Shown in pieces: positions 37-28,751 of a stretch of 56,702 bases of DNA; position 1 is the first letter of the stretch; every line of letters starts with the position of its first letter. The DNA lies in sequence record NC_024146.1; one strand, 5' to 3'. The notes under the pieces are model-generated. The model had not been told where the DNA came from. It did no database searches and saw only the letters and a program-made list of their open reading frames with translations. Source of the stretch: Enterobacteria phage 9g. Made by a program: the position numbers and the translations under genes.

Positions 37-2009
37 TAAGCGGCGTATGCGAGTTTTTCCAGCAATTTTTCCGCTTTAGCTATGTACACTTCGTGGTTAA
101 GATCTGGCGGTAACTGATCAGTCAGTTCCATCATTGGTTTACCCCCTGCTGTCTTACCAACACGCCCACCACTCTTAACTATCAGTATTTCAGGTACTTC
201 TTCTTTTGTATAGTACCAGCGAACAACCTTACCTAACGGCTCACTATTCCACGCAGCTCCACCGTTAGCTGTCTTGATACAAACAAACTTACGAATATCC
301 TGACACTCTGTGATAGTTTTAGCAATTGGTGTACCGTCACGGAGAAGATTAACCACAGCATCCATAATGATTTCACCTTCTGCGTTTTTAGCAAGGCCTG
401 TCTCAGCGAACCAACCTTTACGCTTGGCTTTACCATCTGCCTTGATTGCGACGTAGTTGTTAACGTTTGCGGAGTTAAGGCGCAGGTACTGGTTCAACTC
501 CATTTCAAAGCCAGTTGTTTCTTCCCACCACTTAATGATATCTGTCATTAATTGCTTCTTAGCTTTGCAAGGCTTAATAACAATACCGTCCGTGTTAGCA
601 CTGACAACCTGAATACCGTTAAGCTCTAGTGTTTCAATAAGCATGAGCAGAGCTAACTGACCTGTGAGCGTAGTCTGAATAATAAGGTGCGGTGCATACA
701 GAATAGAGAACGGTGAACCGAACTTACCATAAGAACCGTTAATAACGATCTTAAGAGTTTGTGCGGTCTTATCGTCATGAGCCATCTTAGCTGCAATACG
801 TCGTTCTACGATCTTAACGAAGATATCTATAAAGCGCGGGCCCAGGTGCTCAGGATACAGTTGCTGGTTAATGATACAGATCGGGTAGTATGACGTTACG
901 TCAGCGTCCCACATCTCTTCATCTTCAGACGGTACAATCTCCATTAACTCTTCGCACGAGTGCAGACCACCGATACCCATGTTGTAAGTTGTCTGATTGA
1001 TTGTAAACTTCAAAGAGTTCATGGTTGATGGTTGCTTAATTTTACCGTCTTCTGCAACTCGGAAGTAACTATCAAGCACAACCTGAAATACGGACTTCAT
1101 TAGTGGCGTTTGGAAACCTAACCACACTGGAGGATTGTACTTAAAGGTTCTGCCAACTTCCACCATACCCTTCTGTGGTACGAAGCCCAGCATTTCCTTC
1201 ATTTCATGGCGGATTACAGCTTCTGCGATCTGTGCATCGGATTTAGAGCGAAGGTCTACTTTGTACTCCTCACTCATAATCTCACGTAGATGGATCTGCT
1301 CTTCCAGTGAGTTAAACAGAGCCATTGTTGTATCAAGGTCGTTAATGCAGTAGAAGCGCACAATAGCAATTTGTTCTACGGATAACGCCCAATGTGGTGG
1401 GAATGGTAAGTCCTGGAGCTTCTGCATGTGCATACGGCCGCCATACAACTTCAACGAACCGAAGCCAGGAGCCACCTCTTGAACGTCAATGTGGTCAATC
1501 CAAAACTGTTTTACACCAAAGCTGTTAAGAATGTCCCACGGAGCCCACTCTTCCTGGATCATCCTGTCACTTGCTTCTTTTAGCTTGTCAACAGTCAAAC
1601 CAGCAATGGCAAGGAATGTCATCGTATTATCGTAGTTTCTTGAGTTGAAACCAACGGTACGAAAGTTCTTCATTATCCATTCATATTTTTCCGTGTCAAG
1701 TGTCTGACCGGCAGTCATTTCTAGATAATAAACCTTGCCAAACTTAACCCCTTTAAACGCCACAAGAAAATAGTTCTTATAGCATTCTATATCGTATACG
1801 AACGTTTCTTGTGCAAAATACATTTCCACTAATTCACCGTCTGTCATACGCGGATCGTTAGCTGCAAAACGCATTGCTACATCAAGACCTGGAAGGTAGT
1901 CCGGACGCTCCCATACCCTTTCAACTGGTTGACGTTTTACTTTCTGTTTCTTTTCTTTCTTAGTGGGAGGTAAATCCTCCCAAAAGAAACCAATAGCATC
2001 TTTTCTCAT
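36..2009 (-). CDS. DNA polymerase, family B-like, with 3'-5' exonuclease motifs
   Basis: 657 aa. Exo I-like YDIECY; PolB motif A DVTSYYPICII (DxxSLYPS type); motif B KIVINGSYGKFG (KxxxNSxYG type); motif C-like SANTDG. ATG at 2009 overlaps the stop of the upstream gene (ATGA). Confidence 0.85.
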   Translation of the reverse strand: MRKDAIGFFWEDLPPTKKEKKQKVKRQPVERVWERPDYLPGLDVAMRFAANDPRMTDGELVEMYFAQETFVYDIECYKNYFLVAFKGVKFGKVYYLEMTAGQTLDTEKYEWIMKNFRTVGFNSRNYDNTMTFLAIAGLTVDKLKEASDRMIQEEWAPWDILNSFGVKQFWIDHIDVQEVAPGFGSLKLYGGRMHMQKLQDLPFPPHWALSVEQIAIVRFYCINDLDTTMALFNSLEEQIHLREIMSEEYKVDLRSKSDAQIAEAVIRHEMKEMLGFVPQKGMVEVGRTFKYNPPVWLGFQTPLMKSVFQVVLDSYFRVAEDGKIKQPSTMNSLKFTINQTTYNMGIGGLHSCEELMEIVPSEDEEMWDADVTSYYPICIINQQLYPEHLGPRFIDIFVKIVERRIAAKMAHDDKTAQTLKIVINGSYGKFGSPFSILYAPHLIIQTTLTGQLALLMLIETLELNGIQVVSANTDGIVIKPCKAKKQLMTDIIKWWEETTGFEMELNQYLRLNSANVNNYVAIKADGKAKRKGWFAETGLAKNAEGEIIMDAVVNLLRDGTPIAKTITECQDIRKFVCIKTANGGAAWNSEPLGKVVRWYYTKEEVPEILIVKSGGRVGKTAGGKPMMELTDQLPPDLNHEVYIAKAEKLLEKLAYAA

Positions 2010-25903: not shown

Positions 25904-26149
25904 TTATTTATTATCTAATAATACCGCCCAGGTATTATCTGGAAGCGTACCAATTCCGAGAATGCGAACCTTCCACTGAGCGCGAGAGTTGTACCTGTCC
26001 ACAAGTTCTTGCGCTGCATAAGCTGCATTCGCTTCGCTGCTGAGGCGGTAGTCAATGGGGGTAACAACGCACATGTCAAGGCCGACAGCTTTATAGCGCC
26101 GACATTTCGTTTCGGTAGCGGACAGGGTTTTTACATGGATAGCTTGCAT
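25904..26149 (-). CDS. Hypothetical small protein (paralogue of 26393..26638)
   Basis: 81 aa, ATG at 26149 with AGAGGA upstream. Shares MxQAI..K.L.A.T ... A..A..EL ... G.LPD with the neighbouring 81-aa ORF. Confidence 0.5.
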   Translation of the reverse strand: MQAIHVKTLSATETKCRRYKAVGLDMCVVTPIDYRLSSEANAAYAAQELVDRYNSRAQWKVRILGIGTLPDNTWAVLLDNK

Positions 26150-26392: not shown

Positions 26393-26638
26393 TTAAGCAA
26401 CGATGAACGCGTAACCGCTTTGATCCGGGAGCTCACCACCAGCAACAATCTCAAATTCAACACCAGCCTTATTGTTGAAGTTCTTGATAAGCTCCTCCGC
26501 CGCGGCGCGGTGGTTTCCGTAAGCACTCAAATCGTAACGCCACGTGATAGTCAAGGAGCCGTTCCAACCCGTTGCTTTTACGCGATCGCCACGGGACATA
26601 GTTGGAGCGAGGAATTTAGTGATAATAGCTTGAGCCAT
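26393..26638 (-). CDS. Hypothetical small protein (paralogue of 25904..26149)
   Basis: 81 aa, ATG at 26638 with GGAGT upstream. Confidence 0.5.
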   Translation of the reverse strand: MAQAIITKFLAPTMSRGDRVKATGWNGSLTITWRYDLSAYGNHRAAAEELIKNFNNKAGVEFEIVAGGELPDQSGYAFIVA

Positions 26639-26643
26639 GATAA

Positions 26644-26829
26644 TTACTCCGGTAATATTACAGTCACGTTAATATTTGCAATGCGAGCGCACTCGCGGAA
26701 ACCTGTTACATAAGCATCCATTTCGTCATAGGATGCGAAAGTCACGTCCGGGACTGGTCCGTTGTTAATATTCACGCAATATTCGTGTTCGTCCAGGTCA
26801 ACCCAACAATATAGAACGATAGTTTCCAT
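26644..26829 (-). CDS. Hypothetical small protein
   Basis: Start moved to the ATG at 26829 (GGAGGG 8 nt upstream); 61 aa. Confidence 0.45.
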   Translation of the reverse strand: METIVLYCWVDLDEHEYCVNINNGPVPDVTFASYDEMDAYVTGFRECARIANINVTVILPE

Positions 26830-26830
26830 A

Positions 26831-26905
26831 TTATTTGCCCTCCGTATAATACAGACCCGCAACTATTGGAGCTCCAAACACCAAGAAAGCTAATAAGTAG
26901 AACAT
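26831..26905 (-). CDS. Candidate 24-aa hydrophobic peptide
   Basis: Not in the ORF track. MFYLLAFLVFGAPIVAGLYYTEGK; AAGGGGG upstream; its stop sits 1 nt before the next ATG. Confidence 0.25.
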   Translation of the reverse strand: MFYLLAFLVFGAPIVAGLYYTEGK

Positions 26906-26907
26906 AA

Positions 26908-27387
26908 TTAATTGCCCCCTTTATTATTGAGCCCGTTGAATTTACGCCATGCGTAGAATTCAATCGTTGCATTATTAATATTCCAACCATTAACTTTCGC
27001 AAGGTCACGGACGTTACCAATAGTTGGCACATTATTAGGTAACATATTATCCAGGGCATTCCAAACGTCTGCGCATTTACCCTTAACTGGGCGGCGGACC
27101 CCGTTGCGCGTTTCGCTGCGCGTTTTACTTTTAACGGGAGCGACAGGAGCTTGCTGTGTGGTCACTTCCACGACAATTGCTTTATCAGCTTCCACCAGAT
27201 CGTTAGCTGCCTTATTAACTGCGCTTTCGCTGAACCAGTAGCGGCCACCATTTTCCATGGGTTCCTGGTGGATAAAACTATTTGCTGTCGCTGTGTCTAC
27301 GTCCAGAAACTTTTTCAAGGCACGGCGAGCGTTAGACATATTGGTGAAAAAGCGAGCATCTTTTGCTACGCGAGTGATAGTAACCAT
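26908..27387 (-). CDS. Hypothetical protein
   Basis: Start moved to the ATG at 27387 (GGAGA 8 nt upstream); 159 aa. Confidence 0.5.
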   Translation of the reverse strand: MVTITRVAKDARFFTNMSNARRALKKFLDVDTATANSFIHQEPMENGGRYWFSESAVNKAANDLVEADKAIVVEVTTQQAPVAPVKSKTRSETRNGVRRPVKGKCADVWNALDNMLPNNVPTIGNVRDLAKVNGWNINNATIEFYAWRKFNGLNNKGGN

Positions 27388-27463
27388 TGTGATTATCTCC
27401 ATGCTGTTCTAGCGGATTGCTAGTGGGAGCCCACTGTTACAATGGGCAACCATTAGCACGCTA

Positions 27464-27769
27464 TCATTGTTGAATAGCTTTCGCTATCATTGTAATAAAG
27501 CAGAACACAGACCACAGACTATTCGCTTGGCATACTGCGCGACCATACATTACGCTATGAGAGCTGACAGTGCCGTCCTCGTTAATGCGAATATACAACG
27601 CGGTGCTGGAATATTTTTCGTTTCCCGGGAGCATTACTAAATACTCGTCAAAATCCCAGTCCCCGGCAACTTTTTCCGCTGTAAGGCCCAACTGGTGCAG
27701 GCGCTTGCCAATAATACGTTTGGTGATCATGGACTGGGACATGGGACGCGGTAAGTAAATACTGGACAT
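27464..27769 (-). CDS. Hypothetical protein (first gene of the minus-strand early cluster)
   Basis: Start moved to the internal ATG at 27769 (AAGGGAGA 8 nt upstream); the ATG at 27886 has no SD. Confidence 0.5.
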   Translation of the reverse strand: MSSIYLPRPMSQSMITKRIIGKRLHQLGLTAEKVAGDWDFDEYLVMLPGNEKYSSTALYIRINEDGTVSSHSVMYGRAVCQANSLWSVFCFITMIAKAIQQ

Positions 27770-28088: not shown

Positions 28089-28374
28089 GTATAGTCATGT
28101 AATAGATAGCACACTAATCAAATAAAAAATAGTAACGCGTGTAATAATAAACAACGTTATAGTAGAGCGCATGACAGTCACATGACGTAACAATCACCTC
28201 ACCGACGATCACGGGACGTTATAGTAACGCCGCGGGGCGGCTCTTAGATCTCTGCCAAGGATTCATCGTTTGTAGATTATCTCGTCACTAGACACTTTAT
28301 ATCCTCACCTCACCTGCCCTATATTGTTCGTATAAAGTTAATTCCGTATATAAATACTCGAGAGGAGATCTATT

Positions 28375-28662
28375 ATGTTCGTTCTGGCTTTCAGTAGTGC
28401 AATATGGCTAGGTATCAACTGGATCCTTGCAATTATATTAGGTCTTGTGATTTGGTATGTGCCGTTTATGCGTTACGCTGTTATTATTTCGCTTGCATAT
28501 TTAGTTGTTAAACATTTCCTCGTATGGTGTGTATGTAACCCACAAGCTGCAGACATCAAACGTAACAAAGCGAACTTCTTTAGTGTGCTTATTTTAGGTT
28601 CACTGATTGTGTACGCATGGTTGCTCGGTGTGCGGAACTTAGGTTGGTTCACCTTGCCTTAA
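28375..28662 (+). CDS. Small membrane protein (2-3 predicted TM helices)
   Basis: 95 aa, very hydrophobic; ATG at 28375 with GAGGAG upstream; first gene of the plus-strand cluster. Confidence 0.6.
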   Translation: MFVLAFSSAIWLGINWILAIILGLVIWYVPFMRYAVIISLAYLVVKHFLVWCVCNPQAADIKRNKANFFSVLILGSLIVYAWLLGVRNLGWFTLP

Positions 28663-28751
28663 TGTGGTCACTAATTGTTGCGGCCGGCTATGTTAATCAG
28701 CTTGCGTATCCTGTTATAGTTATTCCGTTAACGTTAAAGGGGTTTATATGA
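28662..28751 (+). CDS. Candidate 29-aa hydrophobic peptide
   Basis: Not in the ORF track. MWSLIVAAGYVNQLAYPVIVIPLTLKGFI; its ATG overlaps the upstream stop (TAATG) and its stop overlaps the next ATG. Speculative. Confidence 0.2.
   Translation: MWSLIVAAGYVNQLAYPVIVIPLTLKGFI

Follow-up and report, generated by a model that had tools for sequence, protein, structure and literature searches.

A conserved 24-codon reading frame in the early region of Enterobacteria phage 9g is a likely gene for a predicted single-pass membrane microprotein

The window analyzed here is the whole 56,702-nt sequence of Enterobacteria phage 9g (NC_024146.1), a coliphage of the genus Nonagvirus (Queuovirinae). On its minus strand, within the early gene cluster, a 24-codon open reading frame (microORF) is squeezed between two longer genes. 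This raises the question of whether so short a frame is a gene at all and, if it is, what its product might do in the infected cell. A first-pass annotation, made from the sequence letters, had proposed a hydrophobic microprotein with one transmembrane (TM) segment, a Shine-Dalgarno (SD) sequence, and translational coupling to its neighbors, and it had dismissed a 95-aa ORF listed over the same region.

Results

Position and translation signals of the microORF

The 24-codon ORF is present as the first-pass annotation had it (Table 1). So is the SD sequence claimed for it: AAGGGGG pairs with the anti-SD at -10.7 kcal/mol and lies 8 to 9 nt from the ATG, and in some relatives (L011 and L012) it is replaced by AAGGAGG. 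The gaps to the neighboring genes had been given as 1 nt on either side. That holds for the downstream side, where a single nucleotide separates the stop codon from the ATG (26829) of a 61-aa gene, but the upstream gap, from the stop codon of 9g_00037 (TAA, 26910-26908) to the microORF start, is 2 nt (tt). The SD sequence of the 61-aa gene, GGAGGG, pairs with the anti-SD at -10.0 kcal/mol with a spacing of 8.

The 9g genome contains 14 other ATG-started ORFs of 18 to 45 aa with equal hydrophobicity, and an SD sequence was found for none of them (0/14). Taken alone, the microORF is no better than chance, and it is conservation that lifts it above chance.

Table 1. Positions of the microORF and of the features around it, numbered on the window
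Feature	Position	Strand	Remark
Microprotein CDS (probable), MFYLLAFLVFGAPIVAGLYYTEGK	26831..26905	-	24 codons plus TAA; ATG 26905-26903, TAA 26833-26831
Predicted transmembrane helix, FYLLAFLVFGAPIVAGLYY	26846..26902	-	codons 2-20; from hydropathy
SD sequence of the microprotein, AAGGGGG	26915..26921	-	within the last codons (K-G-G) of 9g_00037
SD sequence of the downstream gene, GGAGGG	26838..26843	-	embedded in microprotein codons T21-E22-G23
9g_00037, soluble 159-aa two-domain protein	26908..27387	-	microORF always directly behind
Downstream 61-aa gene, METIV..., PHROG 5461	26644..26829	-	replaced by other genes in related phages
81-aa gene	26393..26638	-	same early operon
81-aa gene	25904..26149	-	same early operon
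Terminator-like hairpin	25880-25854	-	from scan; corresponding terminator annotated in SP8
101-aa gene	27464..27769		first gene of the 9g operon
95-aa ORF	26772..27059		overlaps the microORF
Promoter-like site, TTTCCA-16-TATAAT	26823-26850	+	opposite the 3' end of the microORF
Hairpin and T-run	27105-27131	+	about 250 nt downstream of the promoter-like site
95-aa multi-pass membrane protein gene	28375..28662		opens the rightward operon
Second hydrophobic micro-ORF, MWSLIVAAGYVNQLAYPVIVIPLTLKGFI	28665..28751	+	29 aa; inside listed ORF 28617..28751
121-aa gene	at 28748

Conservation and coding potential

The first-pass annotation had named conservation as a check, and the microORF proved to be conserved, both in the genus Nonagvirus and in more diverged relatives. 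A tblastn search shows it intact in each of the 16 GenBank Nonagvirus records; the peptide is 100% identical in 14 of them and has one substitution in the other two, against an identity of only about 92% for the flanking DNA. At the genome level, 9g is 91 to 95% identical to the Nonagvirus phages JenK1, SE1, Bas19, and Bas20. A comparison of 10 distinct, closely related nucleotide variants shows 11 variable sites, 10 of which are synonymous third codon positions (binomial p = 4e-6 for at least 10 synonymous sites of 11), and the sole amino acid change is the conservative V9I. Pooled over 12 variants of the 24-aa form, pN/pS was 0.08 for the called frame, against values of 2.6 and 2.1 for the two alternative frames.

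This substitution pattern points to strong purifying selection on the reading frame. Together with the diverged syntenic homologues described below, it bears out the proposal of a coding microprotein, and on comparative grounds the microORF is very probably a real protein-coding gene. Part of the conservation in the last four codons may act at the nucleotide level, because in 9g these codons double as the SD sequence of the next gene.

The 95-aa ORF had been called spurious, with which our comparison agrees: in all relatives compared but one, its ATG is missing, or it has one to four or more internal stops, or both.

Diverged homologues and distribution of the family

We found ten peptide variants of 22 to 26 aa, with identities down to 46%, all of them directly behind homologues of 9g_00037. 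All members of one enterobacterial branch of the Queuovirinae have the microORF in this place, and the hosts given in the records of these phages are E. coli, Salmonella, and Klebsiella. In the Klebsiella phages vB_Kpn2-P2 and K9PH25C2 and in Ec1-ASingh, the peptide is MMYYIAAFIVFAGPLFAGLYFSK, and these three phages differ from each other here by synonymous changes only. The peptides of metagenomic relatives are MYYVAAFIVFAGPLVAGFYFSK, MFYLLAVLIFAGPIVAGLYYTEGK, MFYLLAALVFAGPVIAGLYYTEGK, MVFYVLAFLVFGVPVLAGILSKSK, and MFYFAAFLVFGGPLLVGFYFSK, plus one 26-aa form. The diverged peptides differ at the DNA level, and among themselves they differ by synonymous changes. In the diverged phages the upstream proteins are only 54 to 66% identical and the DNA is barely aligned by BLASTN, and the syntenic microORF is kept.

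For a wider view of the distribution, the back-translated motif F-[GA]-[GA]-P-x-x-A-G-[LF]-Y-[YF] was scanned against viral, metagenome, and genome collections. True matches were confined to the 9g clade, with 10 IMG/VR contigs and 8 metagenome contigs. Two extra metagenome matches, one a 38-aa hydrophobic ORF and the other a site within a larger membrane protein, seem unrelated. A looser motif gave one true match in 100,044 bacterial and archaeal genomes, and seven others seem unrelated. Since the motif scans match only the 9g phage clade, they add neither a bacterial homologue nor a new genomic context. The single true match is a 3,487-bp phage-like contig (L045, NZ_MPDK01000056.1) in the assembly of the acidophilic Firmicute Sulfoacidibacillus thermotolerans Y002; it carries a microORF of the 9g type together with the end of the gene upstream, and presumably it is a contaminant of that assembly.

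Homologues of 9g_00037 itself are more widespread and are found in 115 phage records from the Queuovirinae and their relatives. A hydrophobic micro-ORF follows in none of the eight more distant members examined (Pantoea phage Vid5, Providencia phages PSTCR4 and PSTCR7, Alteromonas phage R7M, Seurat, VogelGryff, and Vibrio phage ALK among them), which makes the microprotein an addition specific to one clade of Enterobacteriaceae phages. A recent origin, maybe de novo, in the spacer that follows this widespread early gene of the Queuovirinae is compatible with these data. In Escherichia phage Seurat (L057), we noticed an unannotated 37-aa ORF, MQALIQFWLDYNDLLVVIPVCKIIAANQKLKARYSLA, at 984..1097, 4 nt past the stop codon of the 9g_00037 homologue. 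It is moderately hydrophobic and has no similarity to the 9g peptide.

Profile searches with the peptide variants found no homology to characterized small membrane proteins in Pfam, PHROG, NCBIfam, or PDB: Pfam and PDB sequences gave no match, PHROG gave only phrog_29581 (E = 0.11), and NCBIfam gave only NprX (E = 1.4). A literature search found no paper mentioning the microprotein and no proteomic, fractionation, or ribosome profiling data on 9g-like phages. The gene is annotated only in the BASEL phages FritzHoffmann (bas20_0075, QXV79340.1) and ChristophMerian (bas19_0075, QXV77188.1), in both as a hypothetical protein; these entries have the identical 24-aa sequence at the same position and are the same gene. 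Of the other GenBank records of Nonagvirus that contain the sequence, 14 in number, none annotates the gene, and most leave a 78-nt gap. An exact-sequence look-up returns QXV79340.1 and QXV77188.1 only, so the 9g record, too, seems to be without an annotation. The peptides form a new sequence family of a known kind, the single-pass microproteins of phages, and one that most annotations have missed.

Probable early operon and translational coupling

The packaged 9g DNA has its physical left end at 28,243, and leftward transcription of the early genes begins at a promoter in the noncoding region that adjoins this end (PMC4276943). The microORF lies on the minus strand about 1.3 kb from the end, so its assignment to the early cluster agrees with the published map. 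From about 27,888 down to the terminator-like hairpin of Table 1, a scan of the minus strand detected nothing that resembles a promoter or a terminator. With no such site intervening, the microORF would come third among the cistrons of a short operon of the immediate-early class.

The junction with the upstream gene takes two forms. Where there is a gap, the microORF starts 2 to 25 nt past the upstream stop codon and its SD sequence is good, at -5 to -11 kcal/mol. Where the SD sequence is weak (-3 to -4 kcal/mol), the start overlaps the upstream stop, as ATGA in the Klebsiella clade and as TAATG in L017, L039, and L042. A gap with a good SD sequence in some genomes and an overlap with a weak one in others is the pattern expected under translational coupling to the upstream cistron. 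The coupling suggested by the first-pass annotation thus fits both the 2-nt spacing in 9g and the overlapping codons in diverged clades.

The order of the early-operon genes is shuffled between relatives, with junctions exactly at start codons. In the metagenome contigs L033 and L037, a homologue of the 101-aa gene that comes first in the 9g operon follows the microORF; this homologue, recognizable by the motif ...SQSMITKRIIG..., does not precede the 159-aa gene there, unlike in 9g. The two 81-aa genes of the 9g operon are paralogous to each other, with 35% identity across 72 residues (E = 4e-13), and one of them matches PHROG 3199.

Predicted transmembrane helix

The peptide is likely to be a TM helix, as predicted from its hydropathy. 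The best 19-residue Kyte-Doolittle (KD) mean is 1.76 to 2.58 in all 10 variants, and the classical KD threshold for a TM segment is 1.6. All variants thus exceed this criterion, with one hydrophobic segment that is long enough for the bilayer, and at 22 to 26 aa all fall within the class of small single-pass membrane proteins of at most 50 aa. Aromatic residues stand at both ends of the helix, F/Y2-Y3 at one and Y/F at 19-20 at the other, and a Lys is found at or near the C terminus of the peptide; in one variant (L039) the Tyr pair at the C-terminal end is missing. As a prediction, then, the single-TM peptide of the first-pass annotation stands. A simple additive Hessa-type insertion energy is borderline (-0.7 to +1.5 kcal/mol) and slightly positive for most variants, owing to the central Pro and Gly (Gly/Ala-Pro).

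The variants align without gaps around P13. No variation is seen at Y3, A6, F10, P13, and G17, and next to none at A16 and Y19. With a 3-4-3-4 spacing, the five invariant positions lie inside an 80-degree arc of an ideal helix, which is equaled by 39 of 11,628 possible five-position sets (p = 0.0034, from only 10 related sequences). An invariant stripe that combines small and aromatic residues with proline is what one typically sees where helices pack specifically against each other. Such a face is as compatible with an oligomer of the peptide itself as with binding to a host protein.

Discussion

Proposed mode of action

We consider it most likely that the microprotein is an immediate-early, single-pass inner-membrane peptide that works by helix-helix contact inside the bilayer. 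The full reading, in which a selected gene for a TM helix is expressed early, is translated in coupling with its neighbor, and modulates a host membrane protein, has in our estimate a probability of about 0.5. Its most specific component, that the peptide binds a particular host protein within the membrane, is tentative and falls slightly short of an even bet.

The sequence of events would be as follows. The operon would adjoin the genome end that enters the cell first, and as the product of its third gene the peptide would be made in the first minutes of infection, with its translation coupled to that of 9g_00037. Insertion into the inner membrane would be posttranslational, because 24 residues are released from the ribosome tunnel before cotranslational recognition, and it might proceed through the signal recognition particle (SRP) with YidC or SecYEG or be spontaneous. 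Posttranslational insertion of small membrane proteins of E. coli has been reviewed (PMC12648545). The peptide would then span the inner membrane, with the Lys-bearing C terminus probably in the cytoplasm. As no more than four residues would protrude and the invariant Y3/A6/F10/P13/G17 stripe lies within the helix, action by packing within the membrane is suggested, and with so little exposed, the interaction partner should itself be embedded in the membrane. In the likeliest form, the peptide would bind and modulate an integral inner-membrane protein of the host, as AcrZ or MgtS do with their partners. Host takeover, exclusion of other phages, and evasion of a membrane-bound defense are plausible purposes.

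AcrZ (with AcrB), MgtS (with MgtA/PitA), and KdpF are proteins of less than 50 aa with about one TM helix that pack within the membrane (PMC7267776, PMC12648545). The 9g peptide resembles them in being shorter than 50 aa and essentially one predicted TM helix, and its conserved face fits their packing mode. It differs from them in being phage encoded, early, and shorter, with almost no soluble tail, and it has no sequence similarity to them.

Among phage proteins, T4 Imm and HK97 gp15 are early or constitutive inner-membrane proteins that exclude superinfecting phages by acting on DNA entry. By analogy, a role in superinfection exclusion would be plausible for an immediate-early TM peptide, although T4 Imm and HK97 gp15 are several times larger and unrelated in sequence.

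In a stronger version of the preferred reading, a bare helix of 22 to 24 residues would dock through its Y-A-F-P-G face on a specific inner-membrane protein of Enterobacteriaceae and would be a clade-specific effector, the smallest of its kind in phages. We regard this as rather doubtful. If it were true, the target might be a DNA-entry transporter or a membrane-embedded defense effector, and superinfection would be blocked, or immunity disarmed, minutes into infection.

Alternative explanations

The peptide might instead perturb the membrane directly. It would self-associate in the inner membrane and lower the membrane potential or fluidity, with no specific host partner, and the effect would be to silence the metabolism of the host or to keep competing phages from injecting their DNA. 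Hydrophobic peptides of about 19 to 50 aa are known in YohP (27 aa) and in the type I toxins IbsC, ShoB, TisB, and Hok, and the 9g peptide is like them; in size and composition it matches Ibs, ShoB, TisB, and the E. coli YohP, whose production cuts the membrane potential and silences metabolism (PMC12719787). The conserved small-residue face would serve equally well as a self-association interface, and 9g even has a promoter-like site and a hairpin with a T-run on the antisense strand. These antisense elements, however, are at the level of shuffled sequence, arise as by-products of sense codons, and are decayed or lost in relatives. Early depolarization would also cost a lytic phage the host energy that it needs, and the peptide has no homology to any toxin family. 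Unlike YohP and the type I toxins, it has a Pro/Gly motif in the middle of the helix and is encoded in a lytic phage operon, not in a toxin-antitoxin locus, with no conserved antisense RNA. Direct perturbation of the membrane is possible but on the unlikely side.

The antisense elements can be described more closely. The plus-strand promoter-like site has 10 of 12 matches, and with the hairpin and T-run it could yield an antisense RNA of about 270 nt. Its -10 element is a by-product of the Tyr-Tyr-Thr codons of the microORF and its -35 element of the start of the next gene. Promoter-like and terminator-like sites of this kind are no more common than in shuffled sequence, and in relatives they degrade or vanish. 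The pair is probably a coincidence, to judge from these comparisons. A type I toxin-antitoxin locus was rejected, as the candidate promoter and terminator are not conserved and are explained by sense codons, and for the same reasons we see no sign of a type I antisense RNA. A holin or lysis peptide was considered as well: the microORF is not in a late lysis cassette beside an endolysin and belongs to the early leftward operon instead.

A second alternative is that the peptide is a membrane tether or partner for 9g_00037, so that the complex would place a DNA-binding protein at the membrane, as a split analogue of p16.7 of phage phi29. The ORF list starts 9g_00037 at the ATG at 27402 (164 aa), while all relatives annotate a 480-nt form (159 aa) and the alignment favors the start at 27387 (MVTITRV...). 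Its predicted structure (mean pLDDT of 78) has two domains joined by a disordered linker, and the C-terminal domain (residues 93 to 150, pLDDT of about 90) is predicted to form a beta-hairpin and three helices in a winged-helix-like fold. The fold matches of this domain are weak and are enriched for winged-helix and helix-turn-helix (HTH) DNA-binding domains, and the homologue in Alteromonas phage R7M is annotated as a transcriptional activator. The microORF and 9g_00037 are also strictly coinherited, and their translation seems to be coupled. Against this, the peptide would expose at most about four residues beyond the bilayer, and there is little surface for contact, since 9g_00037 has no hydrophobic segment (best 19-residue KD mean of 0.54); as a soluble protein it cannot be the intramembrane partner. 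The eight distant members examined of the 115-record family manage without such a peptide. Given this geometry and a 9g_00037 family that mostly lacks the peptide, the tether is unlikely.

In a third explanation, only the act of translation would matter, and the microORF would deliver ribosomes to the next gene or regulate it as a leader. The SD sequence of the next gene does lie within the last codons of the microORF, and in 9g the stop codon is 1 nt from the next ATG. But the amino acid sequence is conserved, as the pN/pS value shows, and peptides with as little as 46% identity still share the hydrophobicity and the invariant residues. A regulatory leader or arrest peptide should also have a constant gene downstream, and there is none: at least five different genes follow (METIV..., MQAIHVK..., MQTIQLT..., MSTIVSQ..., MKTVIEV..., MQQF..., and MNVN... 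are their starts), and in L033 the next gene begins about 70 nt beyond the microORF. We regard this explanation as very unlikely. Fusion to the upstream protein by frameshifting was likewise rejected, because the offset between the two frames differs between clades (+5, -1, +2, +21, and +25 nt).

That the stretch is not a gene, and is a conserved intergenic spacer, RNA structure, or regulatory site left open by accident, is hardly credible: most annotators did leave a gap here and hydrophobic micro-ORFs are common by chance in the 9g genome, but the substitutions have third-position periodicity, the region shows no excess of RNA folding over shuffled sequence (z = -0.29) and no Rfam family or small RNA match, and the ORF persists in clades beyond the reach of BLASTN alignment.

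Significance and further observations

A microprotein of this type is an expected kind of gene and no surprise for specialists. The result closes an annotation gap in 9g and in at least 14 further Nonagvirus genomes in the databases, and the Klebsiella-infecting relatives gain unannotated homologues. It also provides a case of a gene that lies under the length cutoffs of gene callers and is provable by comparative sequence alone. As a compact family with five invariant residues on one helix face, the peptides join the poorly understood membrane microproteins of phages. Bas19 and Bas20 carry the microORF and infect E. coli K-12, so its function can be tested directly.

A second hydrophobic micro-ORF was seen near the start of the rightward operon. 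It encodes MWSLIVAAGYVNQLAYPVIVIPLTLKGFI and sits between the gene for the 95-aa multi-pass membrane protein, which it abuts, and the 121-aa gene, the start of which it overlaps. This frame is annotated as gp35 in SE1 and is left as a gap in JenK1 and SP8, and it may be another overlooked membrane microprotein.
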